A stretch of DNA of 64,000 nt. Source: Gemmiger formicilis (lineage in GTDB: Bacteria; Bacillota_I; Bacilli_A; RFN20; CAG-826). The position numbers and the translations under genes were made by a program. Shown here one piece after another: positions 16,075 to 47,714 of the stretch (positions are counted from its first letter, which is position 1; each line of letters opens with the position of its first letter). The stretch lies in the NCBI GenBank assembly GCA_963626345.1, contig CAVFXI010000015.1, positions 12,485-76,484 of the forward strand, given 5' to 3'. The notes under the pieces are model-generated. The model ran no database searches. It had not been told where the DNA came from and worked only from the letters and a program-made list of their open reading frames with translations.

Positions 16075-16761
16075 TTATAACCTTTCTTTAATTTTAGTGC
16101 TAAAAGTATTAGTTTCATCGATTTCTCTTTTTGCTAAACAAAGAACTTTTACTTTTCTTGCACCATATTTTTTCATTATCTTAATTGCCGCTTTCATTGA
16201 AGCGCCTGTTGTGATTACATCATCAACAATTAGAATTTTCTTATTTTTTACCTTAAATTTTTCATCAAACTTTAAGATATCCCCAATCTTTTGTCTGTCC
16301 TCATAATTTAATTCTTTTTGCTTGATATTTTCTGTCTTAATTAAACATTTATACATTTCAAGGTCCAAACACTTAAAAATTTCGACTACATGGTTAAAAC
16401 CTCTTTTTTGATCATCTTCAAAATATGATGGGATTGGAACAATTTTATACCCATCGAAAATAGTTTCTAATTCAAGTTTAAATGGCTCTACAAAAATATC
16501 TTTTAACTCATAATCTTCACAACCTTTATAAAGATAAATCTTATCTTTTATTTGGTCATCATATTTATAAATTGCAAGTGCATTGACCCCATCTATTTTA
16601 AAAAATTTAAAGATAGGATCAAACTTGAATAAACACCTATCACATAAATTATAATCAAGCGAAAATAATTTATGAAAACTTTGAAAATTAATGTCATTAA
16701 AGCAGTTTTTGCAAATGTGAGTTTGCTTCTTTTGTTTTTCTAATAGCTTCTTCCATATCAT
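16075..16761 (-). CDS. comFC: competence protein ComFC (phosphoribosyltransferase-domain protein)
   Basis: N-terminal double zinc ribbon (CKNCF...CDRC) and a PRTase motif (ILIVDDVITTGAS). Confidence 0.8.
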   Translation of the reverse strand: MIWKKLLEKQKKQTHICKNCFNDINFQSFHKLFSLDYNLCDRCLFKFDPIFKFFKIDGVNALAIYKYDDQIKDKIYLYKGCEDYELKDIFVEPFKLELETIFDGYKIVPIPSYFEDDQKRGFNHVVEIFKCLDLEMYKCLIKTENIKQKELNYEDRQKIGDILKFDEKFKVKNKKILIVDDVITTGASMKAAIKIMKKYGARKVKVLCLAKREIDETNTFSTKIKERL

Positions 16762-17854
16762 TTGTTTTTTTATTTCCTAAAAATATAACCTCCCCATCTG
16801 GTGCATCCTTAACTCTTCCAACCCTACCAGAAATTTGGATCAATGCTGAAGAGTTATAAATTTTATGATCTGCATTAAAAATTATTACTTGTAAATTTTT
16901 AACTGTTACACCTCTTTCTAAAACGGCCGTTGTGACAAGATATTTATATTTTCCATGACGAAAATCTTCAATTATTTTGCTCCTTTCCTTTACTTGCGAA
17001 TGAACTCTATTACCATTTGGAACAACCATAGAAATTAATTTAAAAACCTCCTCACATTCATCTATTGTTGCTACAAAAAGAAAGCACGGTTTCTTCATTT
17101 TTTGATAATCTTTTAGCTTTTTTGCTAAATAAATATACTTTGTTGGGCCATAAAGTAAAACTATTTTAGGCACAGGAATTGGCTTCATATGATACCTAGT
17201 ATACAAAGTTACTATTTTATGACCTGGTTTAGAAAATTCATTTATTACTGAAGGGGAAGGCGTTGCCGACATAAGGACATAATTCTTTTTTACACTTCTT
17301 CTAAAAAGACTTATTAAAACTGGGTTGTCTTTATATGGAAATGCATCAATTTCATCCAATATAAGTAAATCAAAATATTTTTCATATCGATAAAGTTGAT
17401 GGGTTGTTAATACGATAATATCGCCCACTAATTCACTTGTGCTACCTCCAAAAACACTAACAACTTTATTGTTTATGAAAGTTTTTGATAGTCTTACACC
17501 AAGTTCACTAACTACATCTTTTCTAGGTATGGCAAAACCAACTCGGTACGCATTTTTCAAAGCATATTCAATGACTTTAAAAACAAGTTCAGTCTTACCT
17601 GCTCCACAAACAGCATAAATTAGTGTGTTGATTCCATTAATATAGTTATCTCTTACTTCTTCAGAAATTCTAACCTGTTCCTTGCTTAAAGGATACTTGA
17701 TTATTGCATCTGAATTGGTTGGCGGCAAAAACGTTTCATCTTTATCGACTTTTTCACCCATAAAAGAGATACACCTTCTGCAGTAAGGTTTACCATTTTT
17801 ATAACCAACATACCTTGGGTTACTGTTCTTACAAATTGGACATACAAATTCCAT
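16697..17854 (-). CDS. comFA: competence protein ComFA (DEAD/DEAH helicase)
   Basis: N-terminal zinc finger (CPICK...CRRC), Walker A AVCGAGKTE, DEID box. Start placed at MEFVCPICK, which has a GAAGGGGAA SD 7 nt upstream. The ORF-track N-terminus begins at a TTG within the leader. Coordinate of the start +/-1. Confidence 0.8.
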   Translation of the reverse strand: MEFVCPICKNSNPRYVGYKNGKPYCRRCISFMGEKVDKDETFLPPTNSDAIIKYPLSKEQVRISEEVRDNYINGINTLIYAVCGAGKTELVFKVIEYALKNAYRVGFAIPRKDVVSELGVRLSKTFINNKVVSVFGGSTSELVGDIIVLTTHQLYRYEKYFDLLILDEIDAFPYKDNPVLISLFRRSVKKNYVLMSATPSPSVINEFSKPGHKIVTLYTRYHMKPIPVPKIVLLYGPTKYIYLAKKLKDYQKMKKPCFLFVATIDECEEVFKLISMVVPNGNRVHSQVKERSKIIEDFRHGKYKYLVTTAVLERGVTVKNLQVIIFNADHKIYNSSALIQISGRVGRVKDAPDGEVIFLGNKKTNDMEEAIRKTKEANSHLQKLL

Positions 17855-17899
17855 AAAAAATTCCCCTTCACTATTAATAGGGGGGGAATTCAAAAAATT
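17855..17899 (-). repeat. Copy 1 of the 45-nt leader cassette AAATTTTTTGAATTCCCCCCCTATTAATAGTGAAGGGGAATTTTTT just upstream of the comFA ATG. It has a C7 tract, and the hairpin arms AATTCCCC/GGGGAATT take in the SD
   Basis: Near-identical copy at 42448..42492 upstream of an unrelated gene. The C7 run follows from the ORF-track translation NSPPINSEGEFF. Confidence 0.7.
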
Positions 17900-17913
17900 T
17901 TCACTTTTTTTAA

Positions 17914-18351
17914 TTATTTTTCAAAATTTTTTATTGTATCAACTCTCAAACAATGTCTACCAGCTTCAAAAGGTGTGTTTAAGAAAATATCAGTTCTATG
18001 GATTATGTCTTCAATTTTCATAAATTTTGCACCAAAAGAAATCATATTACAGTCATTATGTTGTCTAATTAGACTTGCAACTTCATCATTGTAAGCAAGC
18101 CCACAACGGATTCCATGAACTTTGTTTGCAGCAATCGAAATACCTTCACCGCTTGTGCAAATTACAACACCAAACTCGCACGTTCCAGCCGAAACAAGTT
18201 CTGCTGCTTTTAATCCAAACTCTGCATAATTGCAACTATCTAAAGAATTAGTTCCAACATCAATAACTTCATATCCTTCTTGTTCTAAGTGTTGCTTCAA
18301 TGCTTCTTTAGCAATGAAACCACCATGATCTGATCCAATTGAAATTTTCAT
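17914..18351 (-). CDS. rpiB: ribose-5-phosphate isomerase B
   Basis: 145 aa; MKISIGSDHGG and the catalytic Cys region VICTSGEGISIAANK. Confidence 0.85.
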   Translation of the reverse strand: MKISIGSDHGGFIAKEALKQHLEQEGYEVIDVGTNSLDSCNYAEFGLKAAELVSAGTCEFGVVICTSGEGISIAANKVHGIRCGLAYNDEVASLIRQHNDCNMISFGAKFMKIEDIIHRTDIFLNTPFEAGRHCLRVDTIKNFEK

Positions 18352-39371: not shown

Positions 39372-40715
39372 TCACTCTAATGATTCAACAGCTTTTAAGA
39401 TTTTAAAATCAGTAATTTTCTTCTTTAATTTCTCAAGTGTTTTGTCTTGAATCTTTCTACATTCATCAATTATATCGTTTGCAGATGATTGAATTGTTTG
39501 AGCTTTCTTTAACATATCTTCAATCGATTTATTAAGCGAAGAAAAAGACTTAACCAAAATTTCTTCTTTAAAATCTTCAAACATTTTTATAGCTTCTTCT
39601 TTATTTATTAAATCTTTTCTCTCGGTGGTAATATAGCTTGCATATTTCACAGAAAGCGATGCAAGCAAACTTAAAAAAGTCATAAAATATTCAGGTCTAA
39701 CAACATACATTTTGTCGTATTCGCTTACTCTAAAAACTGGCGCATCATTAACAGCCCTGTCTCTTTCAAGATTACTTACCAAAATAGCATAATCGCATTT
39801 CTTTTTTCTTCGATCAGTATCAAGTTTCTTATAGTGTTCACTATTTTTATTTTTTGAAGTACTATTTGGATTCTTATCTTTCATATCTAAAAGAACAGAT
39901 GTTAAAAGGGTATTCTCTTTTTTAGAAGAATCTGCATAAACTTTAAAAATAAAATCGCCTTTGGTTTTCTTTGAATCAAGTTCATCTTCAACCGCAATAT
40001 TGTCTTTAATCCATTCGCAATTTTCAAATCCATATATTGCATGCTCTTGATATTGGTTGTCACACCATTGCTCTAAGTTTTCGCCAAGATCTTTAATTCC
40101 AACCATTGATTTTGCAAAAGTTAATGAATTGTTTTGGGCTTCAAGTTCTTTAATTTTTGCATTCATTTCTTTTTCTTTATTTTGAACTGCTTCACTTACT
40201 TTAATATCGACTTTACTTAGTTCCAATTTTAAATTACTTATTTCTTCATCTTTAATTTGTTTAACTTTATCAATTTCTTTCATCTTTTCGACTTCATACT
40301 TTGATTCAATAAGTTTTTTGTCGTTTTCAAGAGTAGAAATTTTATTTTCGTAAGAATTTTTGATTTGTTCTTTTGCAAGCCTTAAATCACTATCTTTTAT
40401 GCTATTCATTTTTTCAATTTCGGAATTTAATTGATTAATTTTGTCTATTAATTTTTGCTTATCTTCGTTATTTTCGCTTTCACACTCTAATTTGATTTTT
40501 TGAATTTCTAAAGTGTGCTTCTCATTTTGCGCTTTTAATTCCTTTTCAAGCATTGAACGAAATTCAATCTCTTTTTCTTTATTTATTAAATTTTGAAGAA
40601 AAGAAACATCTACTTTATTTAATGTTGCCAAATCGATAATGTCACCTTTTTTCGCATCTTCTAATAATTCAATTTCAGTAGAATTGTTTACTTTAATTTT
40701 ATCGTTTATGTTCAT
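39372..40715 (-). CDS. coiled-coil protein with a C-terminal PD-(D/E)xK-type nuclease-like domain (RmuC/DUF2130-like); third gene of the XRE-ImmA operon
   Basis: About 200 aa of Lys/Glu heptad-rich coiled coil. Then GIKDLGENLEQW...KGDFIFKVYAD...VLLDMKDK...CDYAILVS, with the D...(D/E)xK spacing seen in RmuC/DUF2130 proteins. 4-nt start/stop overlap with the ImmA gene. Confidence 0.5.
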   Translation of the reverse strand: MNINDKIKVNNSTEIELLEDAKKGDIIDLATLNKVDVSFLQNLINKEKEIEFRSMLEKELKAQNEKHTLEIQKIKLECESENNEDKQKLIDKINQLNSEIEKMNSIKDSDLRLAKEQIKNSYENKISTLENDKKLIESKYEVEKMKEIDKVKQIKDEEISNLKLELSKVDIKVSEAVQNKEKEMNAKIKELEAQNNSLTFAKSMVGIKDLGENLEQWCDNQYQEHAIYGFENCEWIKDNIAVEDELDSKKTKGDFIFKVYADSSKKENTLLTSVLLDMKDKNPNSTSKNKNSEHYKKLDTDRRKKKCDYAILVSNLERDRAVNDAPVFRVSEYDKMYVVRPEYFMTFLSLLASLSVKYASYITTERKDLINKEEAIKMFEDFKEEILVKSFSSLNKSIEDMLKKAQTIQSSANDIIDECRKIQDKTLEKLKKKITDFKILKAVESLE

Positions 40716-41272
40716 AATTGTTCCTTTCTTTCCTTTTCTTTTTTCATTTCTTTTATTCTTTTAAATGCTGCGTATGTTGCACATTCAGGGGAAACACAAC
40801 AATTATTCTCAATTTCTTCAACAGACATATCTTTTGTTTCTGCTGGCGGAACAAGAAGGTACCCTGCTAATGCATTTGCTTGCCATTCAGGATCTTTATA
40901 TGCTTGTGGTTTTTCTTCTGATTCCTTTGGATGTCTACCAGTTACTGTCATTAAAAAGAAATGACATAATTCATGTGTTAGTGTAAATCTACAACGTGGA
41001 TCATCACAACATGCTCCATCAAATTGCGATTCTTTAATAAATAAAGTGTTAGTTAAAAAATCATATTTGGCTAATTCCCCTTCACCAAATATTTTGTTGT
41101 TATCATCTAAAATTTGATACTCAAAATCCAAAAAGTTTTCGTTATTTTGCATAGACTCTAAAACATCAACAATAGGAAATTTTAGACTCTTACAATTAAA
41201 TAAATTCCTTATATTCTCTGCATATACTTTTAGTTGATGAGTATTTGTAGGAGCACAGAAATAATAAGACAC
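40712..41272 (-). CDS. ImmA/IrrE-family zinc metallopeptidase (CapP-like)
   Basis: HEXXH (LTHELCHFF) followed by the family signature PEWQANALAGYLLVP. Confidence 0.8.
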   Translation of the reverse strand: MSYYFCAPTNTHQLKVYAENIRNLFNCKSLKFPIVDVLESMQNNENFLDFEYQILDDNNKIFGEGELAKYDFLTNTLFIKESQFDGACCDDPRCRFTLTHELCHFFLMTVTGRHPKESEEKPQAYKDPEWQANALAGYLLVPPAETKDMSVEEIENNCCVSPECATYAAFKRIKEMKKEKERKEQL

Positions 41273-41273
41273 T

Positions 41274-41636
41274 TTATTTTTTCTCCTCCTCTTCTAATAG
41301 CTTTTTAAGTTTATCGAGAGTATTTGGATCAATATTTTTAATAGACCTTGCAAACATTAAAGAAACATTTTGTTGCTCTGCATCCATTGTTTCTAAATTC
41401 AAAGAGACTTTTTGCTGCGTAATATCAAAAGCATTTTGCAAATCTCTTTTTTGTTCATTGCCCAAATTATAAATATTTGAAATGTCCTCGACCCATTTTG
41501 CTGGAATGTTCTTTTTCCCAACTTCTACTGCGCTGAGAAACGAAGTGCTAACATTTAGTTTTTCAGCCATATCTTTCATATTTTCAAAATTATCTAATCT
41601 AATATGACGTAAAACTTTTCCAAATTCTGTGTACAT
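41274..41636 (-). CDS. XRE-family HTH regulator (CapH/ImmR-like), first gene of the operon
   Basis: HTH_3 (MYTEFGKVLRHIRLDNFENMKDMAEKLNVSTSFLSAVEVGKKNIP). Start placed at the Met with a GGAGGGA SD 7 nt upstream; a sigma70 promoter lies inside the ORF-track N-terminus. Confidence 0.8.
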   Translation of the reverse strand: MYTEFGKVLRHIRLDNFENMKDMAEKLNVSTSFLSAVEVGKKNIPAKWVEDISNIYNLGNEQKRDLQNAFDITQQKVSLNLETMDAEQQNVSLMFARSIKNIDPNTLDKLKKLLEEEEKK

Positions 41637-41651
41637 ATGGGTCCCTCCACT

Positions 41652-41680
41652 ATAATAAAATAAATAAATTTGCTTGTCAA
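41652..41680 (-). promoter_or_regulatory. near-consensus sigma70 promoter of the XRE-ImmA-nuclease-like operon
   Basis: Minus strand reads TTGACA-17 nt-TATTAT, then AGTGGAGGGACCCAT ATG. Confidence 0.6.
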
Positions 41681-41748
41681 CCATAAAGGTTGATAAATTT
41701 AACTTAATTTGTTTAAATTCTTTTCTACAAAATAATTATACAAGAATC

Positions 41749-42447
41749 TTATTCTTTTTCTTTAAAAAGTTTTATTTTTTCAAACTCTTTTTCTTCTAAT
41801 GGATTGTATTTATATTTTTTAATCATTTTTATAATTCTTTTTGCAACTTTATAGTCATTAAATAATTTTATTAGTTCATCATATATCTTTTGAATTAATT
41901 CTTCTAACGATCGCCCTTTTATAAACTCAACTTCAGTATCGCTAACCATTTCAAAAGTAAAACCTTCTAAAACAAAACCATCAATTAATAAAAGCACAAT
42001 TTTTATATAAAACAAAAATAGATTGGTTAAATTTTTCCTATGACTTCCTTTTTTCGCAGTTTTAATATTCTTAAAAATCTCAAAATCTTCAATAGAATAA
42101 CCACGAGGCAAACAGTAAATTAAAATAAAACAATTAATTAGCGATTCGCTTTCTTCATTAAACTTATTTCTTAAGATTTTTTCTTTTTCAAAATGGGCAT
42201 AAAAATTAACTAATGAATCACTAATAAAATAATCTCTGCAGTCTTTATTTATATATGTAGCTTGAAAATAATAAGATATCAAAACTGCATAAAAAGTTAT
42301 TCTTTCAATTTCATTAAATTTTTCATCTACTGAAATATCATAATTTTTAAACAAATCTAAAATATTCTTCTTTATATTATAAAAAGAAGTAAAACAACTT
42401 TCTTGGATGGTTCTAACCTTCCATTTATACTTAACATCGAAAATCAT
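41749..42447 (-). CDS. hypothetical protein, 232 aa, no recognisable domain
   Basis: ORF with an SD (GGGAGGAA). Its leader is the second copy of the C7 cassette. Confidence 0.5.
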   Translation of the reverse strand: MIFDVKYKWKVRTIQESCFTSFYNIKKNILDLFKNYDISVDEKFNEIERITFYAVLISYYFQATYINKDCRDYFISDSLVNFYAHFEKEKILRNKFNEESESLINCFILIYCLPRGYSIEDFEIFKNIKTAKKGSHRKNLTNLFLFYIKIVLLLIDGFVLEGFTFEMVSDTEVEFIKGRSLEELIQKIYDELIKLFNDYKVAKRIIKMIKKYKYNPLEEKEFEKIKLFKEKE

Positions 42448-42492
42448 AAAATTCCTCCCTTCACTATTAATAGGGGGGGAATTTAAAAAATT
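42448..42492 (-). repeat. Copy 2 of the 45-nt leader cassette AAATTTTTTAAATTCCCCCCCTATTAATAGTGAAGGGAGGAATTTT, with a C7 tract
   Basis: 37 of 37 core positions match copy 1 at 17855..17899. Placed between the stop of the 77-aa HTH gene and the ATG of the 232-aa gene. Confidence 0.75.
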
Positions 42493-42510
42493 TTTAAAAA
42501 ATTTTAAAAA

Positions 42511-42744
42511 TTAATTCGTTGCTTTTCTAACTAATACATAAATATCGTTATTTCTATCATAAATTAATTCACGTCCATCTCTCATGAATGTAAGATAATT
42601 ACGAATACTTTTCAAATAACGATAAAAAGACACATCAGTAATTTGAAGTTTGTCAGTTATTGACTTTTTTTCCATGCGCCCTCTTGTTTCAAGAGTTTCA
42701 AGCATGTATAGTAATGCGATACTTTTTCTCATTTTTATCCCCAA
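42511..42744 (-). CDS. small winged-helix DNA-binding protein (HTH_11/DeoR-N-like; resembles the N-terminal domain of WYL-type regulators)
   Basis: 77 aa; ...KKSITDKLQITDVSFYRYLKSIRNYL fits the HTH_11 pattern (VS.RTI.RDI..L). Confidence 0.4.
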   Translation of the reverse strand: MGIKMRKSIALLYMLETLETRGRMEKKSITDKLQITDVSFYRYLKSIRNYLTFMRDGRELIYDRNNDIYVLVRKATN

Positions 42745-46812: not shown

Positions 46813-46999
46813 AAATTTTCTTCCTTTTTCAACCTCAATAGTCTACCACAATTCACAAAAAGAATAAAAACAAGAATGGTTAATCTATCAATATTTAATA
46901 ATGAGCCAATAATCGCAGTTTTTACTGTTCAAATTAAAAATTAAGTTCAAAAAAGGTATTTTTTTACTGATTTTTATAGAAAGAATCGACACAATCCTA

Positions 47000-47021
47000 T
47001 ATAATCTATAAATAGATTATA
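47000..47021. promoter_or_regulatory. perfect 10-bp inverted repeat TATAATCTAT-AA-ATAGATTATA, overlapping the -10 region and abutting the hypB SD (candidate repressor operator)
   Basis: Checked base by base; ends at the AGGAG SD, 10 nt before the hypB ATG. Confidence 0.55.
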
Positions 47022-47030
47022 GGAGTTACT

Positions 47031-47714
47031 ATGGAAGATAAGGTACGGGTAATTGAGCTCAAAGAGAGTGTTTTTAAAAACAACGACGAAAAAGCTAACG
47101 AATTAAGAAAAGAACTCAAAGAAAATGGTGTATTCTTACTTAATTTGATGTCAAGCCCAGGAAGCGGAAAGACAACCACACTAACAAAACTCATCAATCG
47201 AATTAAAAACGAATTTAAGATTGGGGTTATGGAAGCAGATATTGATGGAGATATTGATACAAGCGACATAATCAAAAACACCGGGGTAAGTGCTATTCAA
47301 CTTCATACAGGAGGAATGTGCCACTTAGATGCCGGTATGACAAAACAAGGTTTAGATAGCCTAGAAAGTTTGAAAGATTTTGATTTAATTTTTCTAGAAA
47401 ATGTCGGCAATCTTGTATGCCCAGCTGAGTTTGATACAGGAGCTTCGAAGAGTGCAGTTATTCTCTCAGTTCCTGAAGGCGACGATAAACCACTCAAATA
47501 TCCACTTATGTTCGAAAAAGTTGATCTAGTTATAATCAACAAAATAGATGTTAAAGAATATTTCGATTTTGATTTCAAACAATGCGAAGAATGGATAAGA
47601 ATGAGAAATAAAAATTGCAAGATAATAAAAATATCTGCAAAGACTGAAGAAGGATTAGATGAATTGGCTGAATTTATTAAAAGTGAAGTGAACACTTGGA
47701 AAGGAAATGAATAA
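47031..47714 (+). CDS. hypB: Ni-insertion GTPase HypB
   Basis: P-loop SPGSGKTT, CH motif GGMCH, and ENVGNLVCPA (HypB-specific; UreG differs). No N-terminal His/Cys-rich metal-binding tail. Confidence 0.85.
   Translation: MEDKVRVIELKESVFKNNDEKANELRKELKENGVFLLNLMSSPGSGKTTTLTKLINRIKNEFKIGVMEADIDGDIDTSDIIKNTGVSAIQLHTGGMCHLDAGMTKQGLDSLESLKDFDLIFLENVGNLVCPAEFDTGASKSAVILSVPEGDDKPLKYPLMFEKVDLVIINKIDVKEYFDFDFKQCEEWIRMRNKNCKIIKISAKTEEGLDELAEFIKSEVNTWKGNE

Follow-up and report, generated by a model that had tools for sequence, protein, structure and literature searches.

The question raised by this locus is why two unrelated genes, comFA and an orphan gene, are preceded by nearly the same short leader, and what that leader does. 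The DNA analysed here, referred to as the window, is a stretch of 64,000 nucleotides (G+C content 29.8%, standard genetic code), in which a first-pass annotation had pointed out the shared leader. Both copies are indeed present on the minus strand. A direct read of that strand gives copy 1 as AAATTTTTTGAATTCCCCCCCTATTAATAGTGAAGGGGAATTTTTT, followed by the ATG of comFA at 17854-17852, and copy 2 as AAATTTTTTAAATTCCCCCCCTATTAATAGTGAAGGGAGGAATTTT, followed by the ATG of the orphan gene at 42447-42445. Copy 1 had been placed at 17855-17899, which is the right location but one base too short, as the leader is 46 nt long (17855-17900); copy 2 spans 42448-42493. The stretch common to both copies, AAAATTTTTT[G/A]AATTCCCCCCCTATTAATAGTGAAGGG, is near-identical as annotated, though at 37 of 38 positions rather than 37 of 37, with an unbroken identical core of 27 nt. 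The C run comprises seven bases in both copies, including copy 1, where six or seven had been in doubt, and it appears on the plus strand as G7 at 17880-17886 and 42473-42479. In a homopolymer listing of the 64-kb window, these two C7/G7 tracts are the only C/G runs longer than five bases. When the 27-mer core was searched for with up to three mismatches, the window contained two sites, namely copies 1 and 2, against zero expected from 100 shuffles.

The cassette upstream of comFA (17855..17900, minus strand; direct read and 27-mer match) consists of a T run, AATT, C7, an AU-rich loop, GTGAA, GGGG AATT, and a U run. Its 5' arm, which we read as an anti-Shine-Dalgarno (anti-SD) arm, occupies 17880..17890 (AATT at 17890-17887 and C7 at 17886-17880) and pairs with GGGGAATT in the MFE structure. 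The loop (17867..17879) is composed of TATTAATA at 17879-17872, a -10-like palindrome, and GTGAA at 17871-17867. The 3' arm (17855..17866) includes the SD, GGGG at 17866-17863, then AATT and the remainder of a U6 run up to the start codon. Copy 2 (42448..42493, minus strand) comprises AAATT (42484-42480), C7 (42479-42473), TATTAATA (42472-42465), GTGAA (42464-42460), and GGGAGG (42459-42454). We note that the loops at 17871-17879 and 42464-42472 (minus strand) read TAT TAA TAG TGA, with all three stop codons in one frame, and that TAGTGA is retained in most variants of the cassette.

The genes behind the two copies are those named in the first-pass annotation. Copy 1 precedes comFA (16697..17854, minus strand, ATG at 17854), which encodes a ComFA-like helicase of 385 amino acids with an N-terminal CxxC...CxxC zinc-finger motif and ResIII/DEAD/Helicase_C domains, and comFC lies downstream of it (16075-16761). 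On the other side, rpiB (17914..18351, minus strand) is the last gene of a prfA-prmC-tsaC-rpiB run, with its stop codon ~25 nt ahead of the 5' arm of copy 1; the gene order at this site is prfA-prmC-tsaC-rpiB and then comFA-comFC-secA-prfB. Homologues of ComFA with 56-74% identity carry the source names "Bacilli bacterium," "Candidatus Onthovivens sp.," and "Tenericutes bacterium," which places the window in an uncultured low-GC lineage of Bacilli found in gut-type samples, possibly the RF39-like group. Copy 2 precedes a gene for a 232-aa protein (41749..42447, minus strand), the first gene of a small island downstream of the cassette, and upstream on the same strand is a 77-aa open reading frame (42511..42744), which ends with a stop codon ~26 nt ahead of the 5' arm. 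Searches of Pfam, PHROGs, and PADLOC gave no match for the 232-aa protein, and no identical protein is recorded elsewhere. The island as a whole (39372-42744, minus strand) holds the 77-aa open reading frame, the 232-aa orphan, an Xre HTH protein, an M78/ImmA peptidase, and a 447-aa DUF2130 protein. The Xre HTH protein resembles CapH (E 3.5e-7) and the peptidase resembles CapP (E 5e-9); the island behind copy 2 may be a damage-inducible defence module or a prophage remnant.

The cassette is not confined to the window. Scanning one genome per species with a pattern allowing C5-C11, we found seven further exact copies in two metagenome-assembled genomes (MAGs) of ~30% G+C, and more copies occur in other assemblies, so that the search for additional sites suggested by the first-pass annotation proved productive. 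Altogether, the cassette is present at at least six loci in the window's species group of uncultured low-GC Bacilli. Two of the seven copies stand at the orthologous comFA site (L004 and L006), and another two precede a conserved 60-aa membrane protein gene located between valS and the L21 leader/rplU (L001 and L005). The remaining copies precede a gene for a C39-peptidase-only protein together with a membrane protein gene, continuing into ybeY-cdd-era-recO (L003), a gene for a 137-aa Sigma70_r4/phrog_36 regulator (L002), and, 132 nt further on, rpsF-ssb-rpsR (L007). The genes other than comFA are thus heterogeneous, which does not bear out the earlier hint of a competence regulon. All copies are co-oriented with the downstream gene, and GAAGG lies 9-11 nt before the start codon in six of eight distinct copies. 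Since a profile built from ten copies matches either full copies (59-69 bits) or noise, with no degenerate copies, the element is a discrete cassette and not a degenerate motif family.

Outside these genomes the searches returned little. A tract-agnostic pattern gave two chance matches in JGI metagenomes, both inside coding sequence and lacking the C run; viral contigs gave zero matches, whether scanned with the exact cassette or with the family motif; and BLAST against plasmids and phages gave only short matches with E = 0.1 or weaker. At the gathering threshold of Rfam 15, the window and eight loci showed nothing besides tRNA and the L21 leader, and ranking by E-value added nothing meaningful (best scores of 12-24 bits against thresholds of 36-186). 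A literature search with the sequence string retrieved no paper on the cassette. Regarding the source assemblies, the MAGs carrying L001-L007 (CAVGUA01 and CAVEUG01) are titled Parabacteroides goldsteinii and Slackia isoflavoniconvertens; their contigs have 26-31% G+C and a Firmicute gene order, and the names look misassigned. The single-pass membrane proteins encoded between valS and the L21 leader/rplU are exactly 60 aa long throughout the lineage and form 57 clusters (L001 3676-3858; L005; L034-L063), none of which has a Pfam domain or an informative name.

What the cassette might do is best seen by comparing two junctions, rpiB-comFA and valS-60-aa gene, across species. At rpiB-comFA, the sister species read AAATTCCCCC-ACAAATATTATGTGAAA-GGGGGATTTTTT(T) in sp2 (ComFA 86% identical to that of the window), AAAATTCCCC-TAGTAATACTTAGTGAAA-GGGGATTTTTT in sp3 (85%), AAAATTCCCC-TAGTAATATTAGTGAAA-GGGGAATTTTTT in sp4 (69%), and AAAATTCCCCTCCA-TTCAATAAG-TGGAGGG-CTTTTTT in sp5 (74%). 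The arm and SD combinations at this site are CCCCC with GGGGG, CCCC with GGGG (two species), and CCCTCCA with TGGAGGG followed by C and T6. At the valS junction, the corresponding combinations are C7 with GGGAGG (sp1), C6 with GGGAGG (spA), TTCCTCC with GGAGGAA (spB), TTCTCC with GGAGGA (spC), and CCCG with GGGGG (sp2). The C-rich arm therefore changes together with the type of SD across species (CCCC/GGGG, CCTCC/GGAGG, and CCCTCCA/TGGAGGG), which identifies it as an anti-SD arm. The conserved blocks are AATTC, GTGAA, and GG. GTGAA is unchanged in 17 of 18 sequence variants, and all 18 (two loci, at least eight species) have TTCC and GTG 13-14 nt apart; together with the loop positions A.T..GTG, this fixed spacing is conserved more than pairing demands. 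The anti-SD of the 16S 3' tail in Firmicutes is CCUCCUUUC. Judged against this tail, GTGAA(A)GG or GAA(A)GGAGG reads as an extended SD complementary to it, which would cover most of the 3' block.

Folding predictions point in the same direction. In 14 of 16 variants, the structure predicted by RNAfold has the C-rich arm paired with the SD (-8 to -16 kcal/mol). Among the 43 gene starts of the window, folded from -48 to +3, the two cassette genes rank first and second in stability (-11.6 and -10.5 kcal/mol, against a median of -3.1), and the pairing probability of their SD is 0.71 and 0.68, against a median of 0.40. The SD is thus paired in the favoured structure, and the relatives carry complementary arms, as is found in SD-sequestering hairpins. 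The first-pass annotation had proposed a hairpin that takes in the SD and is followed by a U run: its pairing part holds in those 14 variants, and the U run is present at comFA, but no U tract follows the stem at valS or at L001, L002, and L007. The copy upstream of rpsF (L007) and L002 are without a usable 3' arm and barely fold. Formal covariation fails because the arms are of low complexity and the pairing register slides between variants: RNAalifold on a MAFFT alignment recovered four pairs only and no compensatory change, and in an arm-swap test, in which two variants had extraction errors, native arms paired no better than swapped ones. As such, the predicted structure draws its support from conserved pairing potential and a few visible double changes, and not from statistics.

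The explanation that we favour, with about an even chance of being correct, is that the cassette is a cis-acting translation-initiation region locked in an anti-SD stem-loop. Specifically, the C run flanked by AATT would act as the anti-SD arm and pair with the extended SD, GAAGGGG or GAAGGGAGG, which lies ~10 nt before the start codon, so that the two arms enclose an AU-rich loop of 13-16 nt. Transcripts entering from the upstream gene would then carry a masked ribosome-binding site, and the downstream gene would be translated weakly, or only once the stem has been opened. A ribosome terminating 10-25 nt upstream could open the stem, which would amount to translational coupling. The repeat, its copy number, the constant C7, the conserved potential for pairing, the terminator features, and the homology to the end of valS are observations; we infer that the stem forms in the cell, that it limits translation, and that some such agent opens it. 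The element is a lineage-specific duplicated 5' cassette, probably SD-masking and terminator-like in character, and as such belongs to a familiar class. In SD-sequestering leaders such as the ermC and cat leaders or the MS2 coat-replicase junction, a pyrimidine-rich arm likewise pairs with the SD near the start codon, and here too a reading frame comes to its end 10-25 nt upstream of the stem. Unlike the ermC and cat leaders, the cassette has no evident leader peptide with its own SD, and the same cassette is common to unrelated genes. If this explanation is true, it provides a concrete, testable case of post-transcriptional control in small-genome uncultured gut Bacilli, in which a single hairpin terminates the upstream operon, hides the ribosome-binding site of the gene that follows, and, as a unit, can be duplicated in front of newly acquired genes.

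Two coding features of the region deserve separate mention. A reading of the cassette as coding sequence, giving NSPPINSEG in the comFA frame, was rejected because the frame is not kept in the orthologues L001 and L004. In addition, two mini-ORFs stand 10 nt before the 5' arm, ATG AAA AAA ATT TGA at L002 (2258-2244, minus strand) and ATG AAA AAA AAT TAA at L003 (6367-6353, minus strand). They encode MKKI* and MKKN*, and neither has an SD before it; from their sequence, they look like relics of the last valS codons (TTG AAA AAA ATT TAA) that came with the unit when it was duplicated. In the window's species, the stop codons of the loop are in frame with valS at the valS junction, a feature not conserved in other species.

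At the comFA site, the same stem would have a further role. In copy 1, RNAfold predicts a stem of 8-9 pairs, including four G-C pairs, with a 16-nt loop and followed by U6. Given this stem and U6 directly after rpiB, the cassette would double as an intrinsic terminator of the prfA-prmC-tsaC-rpiB operon. Like intrinsic terminators that overlap the next ribosome-binding site, the comFA cassette has a G+C stem followed by U6-U7 directly after the rpiB stop codon; it differs from them in its 16-nt loop, and a terminator consensus scan called none at either window copy. The orthologue at the comFA site of sp5 shows every feature of a textbook intrinsic terminator, with a stem of 7-9 bp, a loop of 5-9 nt, and C followed by T6, whereas the valS-type copies, L001, L002, and L007 are without a U tract. 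A terminator found in Staphylococcus (NZ_CP016859.1, L064 701-765, and 24 other plasmids) shares 21 identical nt with the cassette in its 5' arm, ATTTTTTGAATTCCCCCCCTA. In it, a AATTCCCCC arm pairs with GGGGGAATT as in the cassette, and it follows an MFS transporter gene; unlike the cassette, it has a long perfect inner stem in the middle and lies at a 3' end, not before a start codon. With E = 0.4, this likeness is probably one of analogy or convergence and not homology.

How the cassette came to stand before an orphan gene is suggested by its flanks. Copies elsewhere have as much as 58 nt in common with the valS junction, the last codons and stop of valS (TGAAAAAAATTTAAAAAYTTTTTGAATTCCCCCCCTATTAATAGTGAAGGGAGGAA) among them. 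Within one MAG, valS (L001) and L002 are alike over ~55 nt with 2-3 mismatches, and across the two MAGs, valS and L003 are alike over ~58 nt with one mismatch; copies 1 and 2 of the window share 38 nt. Three paralogues in one MAG have a lineage-specific C (AAAAACTTTTT) at an upstream position where the other species has T, and a second position follows the type of locus across species. This mosaic of lineage-type and locus-type positions suggests that the valS copy was duplicated and that gene conversion followed. In sp2, the rpiB-comFA and valS junctions share the pattern and are only ~65% alike in the middle, or loop, while in the window's clade they are identical. According to this scenario, the element would be ancestral at the two junctions of the clade, and in the window's species group a version of ~57 nt, including the last valS codons, would have reached at least four more genes by copying or gene conversion. 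Such copying of the valS version would explain the identical copy before the orphan gene.

Identical copies of a short imperfect palindrome also invite a reading of the cassette as a REP- or MITE-like selfish miniature repeat that does nothing for the adjacent genes. The signs of gene conversion among copies would suit such a repeat, as would two Logan contigs (L011 and L012) that end inside the C run, consistent with an assembly graph broken by a repeat that exceeds the k-mer in length. We nevertheless regard this reading as very unlikely, given that every copy has the same orientation relative to its gene and keeps a set distance from the start codon, that no terminal inverted repeats beyond the stem and no target-site duplication were seen, that degenerate copies are absent, and that synteny and conservation at two sites extend across species, down to a ComFA identity of 69-74%. 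The idea that the C7 tract is a slipped-strand contingency switch, turning genes on and off through promoter spacing or stem length, appears extremely improbable. The first-pass annotation had proposed phase variation here, and a 7-nt C/G homopolymer directly upstream of a -10-like box in a genome of 30% G+C does recall known switches, since homopolymer tracts in promoters act in this way in Bordetella fim, Neisseria, and Mycoplasma. As in these phase-variable promoters (the Bordetella fim C-stretch, Neisseria opc/porA, and, with poly-A, Mycoplasma vlp), several genes carry the same upstream sequence. In contrast to them, the tract of the cassette, which lies outside coding sequence, is short and invariant: we found C7 in all 29 complete copies from the window's clade, covering six loci, more than 20 independent assemblies, and three or four species. 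At comFA, ten assemblies of the window's species all have C7 within an identical intergenic region, and at the valS junction all nine assemblies have C7. Each sister species has its own fixed tract, namely C6 (six assemblies), C5 (five), C4 (six), and the interrupted CCTCCC and CTCC (six each), with CCCG also found, and none shows a polymorphism in C-run length among its three to six assemblies; the interrupted arms keep pairing rather than length. In sp2, assemblies of the same kind did capture a T6/T7 length polymorphism a few bases from the arm, so variation in the C tract would have shown, and phase variation is unsupported. The C7 tract is therefore most likely a fixed structural arm, in which the ability to pair, and not length, is conserved. 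This removes a tempting false lead, the phase variation of a competence gene.

A more serious rival, possible though in our judgement clearly on the unlikely side, is that the cassette is a compact module of promoter and ribosome-binding site (a "mobile promoter"), whose loop carries the -10 box, TATTAA(T) here and TATTAT or TAATAT in relatives. Transcripts would start near GTGAA, their SD free in a leader of ~15 nt; the C run, as upstream DNA, might insulate the gene by terminating incoming transcripts or masking their SD, and copies would spread because they bring expression signals. Near-identical upstream sequences before unrelated genes are a described phenomenon, for which Nijveen, Matus-Garcia, and van Passel (2012, PMC3575422) defined putative mobile promoters as sequences of at least 50 nt with at least 80% identity before non-paralogous genes of one genome, in a window from -150 to -50. 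The cassette likewise comprises ~50 nt of near-identical non-coding DNA before non-homologous genes; it differs in lying at about -57 to -1 and taking in the SD, and any promoter activity is putative. In most variants, a TAWWAT-like hexamer ends 2 nt before GTGAA, and copies stand before genes of island or prophage type (copy 2, and L002 with its phrog_36 match). The context of L003 is also relevant: this copy lies directly after a strong rpsU terminator (AACTAGCAGAAATGCTAGTT with T7 behind it) and heads an operon containing essential genes, and with no other promoter-like site there, the operon needs a promoter in or near the cassette. Similarly, if the hairpin at comFA is the terminator that it resembles, comFA-comFC would need a start point downstream of it. 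Against a promoter, no copy passed a sigma-70 consensus scan requiring a TTGACA-like -35 and a TATAAT-like -10 with A2 and T6, 16-18 nt apart; in the five copies scanned (copies 1 and 2, L001, L002, and L003), no site used the loop as -10. The best -35-like hexamers are 19-21 nt from the -10-like box, TATTAA is without the -7 T (T6 of the hexamer), and an AU-only loop resembles a -10 by chance. The TATTAAT put forward in the first-pass annotation is accordingly a weak -10 candidate, and it is the L003 context that keeps a loop promoter possible. Furthermore, the organism does have textbook promoters, namely a TTGACA-17-TATAAT before the L21 leader that matches the consensus at 12 of 12 positions, and plausible promoters before secA and rpsF. 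A promoter alone would leave unexplained why the C arm tracks the SD across species. A combined model explains the most: the stem would terminate or mask incoming transcripts, while a putative weak promoter in the loop would yield transcripts with a free SD.

The last rival takes the cassette as the recognition site of a dedicated trans-acting factor, i.e., an alternative sigma factor, a repressor or activator, or an RNA-binding protein, with comFA-comFC, rpsF-ssb-rpsR, the C39 peptidase, the 60-aa membrane protein, and the island genes as its regulon. The AATTC and GTGAA blocks keep a constant spacing of 13-14 nt in 18 variants, and one copy precedes a Sigma70_r4 protein. In addition, the 33-nt core of the window recurs at 33 of 33 positions in a MAG with flanking genes of 83-87% identity, which has a probability of ~0.005 if the core evolved at the rate of the flanks. 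The cassette nevertheless fits no consensus with which it was compared (sigma-A by scan and sigma-I by published consensus), GTGAA as a -10 would place transcript starts inside the SD, and the two loci of sp2 diverge in the loop as described above. The anti-SD arm and the extended SD explain both blocks more simply, and the downstream genes are a mixed set. We consider such a factor unlikely, and slightly less likely still the specific version in which an alternative sigma factor or RNA-binding translational regulator jointly controls the DNA-uptake genes comFA-comFC, rpsF-ssb-rpsR, the C39 module, and the newly acquired island genes, with the identity of the copies reflecting co-evolution. 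In that version, the cassette would give this uncultured gut lineage, a relative of the Mollicutes, its first regulatory signal for a competence-like programme.

Several known recognition sites were compared and rejected. Of the consensuses for ComK K-boxes, the ComX cin-box, sigma-H, sigma-B, and ECF sigma factors, none fits the spacing, and the set of genes is not a competence regulon. The cin-box, TACGAATA, matches the loop TATTAATA at six of eight positions. A sigma-I promoter, with its C-rich -35, was also rejected: the consensus is ACCCCC--AA N15 CGAA in Bacillales, or C-----AAA, 13-14 nt, and CGWA (PMC4711584), and the copies have no CGAA or CGWA at the required distance and no conserved 3' flank.

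Some further observations concern where comFA starts. Automatic gene calls for ComFA begin at an internal Met, giving proteins of 354-357 aa instead of 385 (window 17762-17854; proteins P0001, P0004-P0006, and P0010). The late call drops the CxxC...CxxC N-terminus adjoining the cassette. The apparent start is ATG in the window, GTG in the MAG CAVGUA, ATA in sp2, sp3, and sp4, and ATT in sp5, and the odd start codons are located ~90 nt before the called start in L023-L029 and at about position 530-540 in L030. Since the codons after the odd start (EFICP.C) are conserved, the zinc-finger N-terminus is still coding. The lesson for annotation is that gene callers truncate ComFA by 31 residues at the cassette. 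The T7/T6 difference within sp2 (L023, L024, and L026 against L025 and L027) falls in the U tract that follows the stem and adjoins the comFA start, and the shorter T6 form puts the GTG of GTGAAAGG in the comFA reading frame.

Finally, the window contains an unrelated SD-sequestering hairpin at 46985-47030 (plus strand), CCTATATAATCTAT-AAAT-AGATTATAGG, which precedes the gene at 47031-47714. Its SD has a pairing probability of 0.91, a TATAAT lies inside the stem, and the gene behind it encodes a HypB/UreG-like GTPase.
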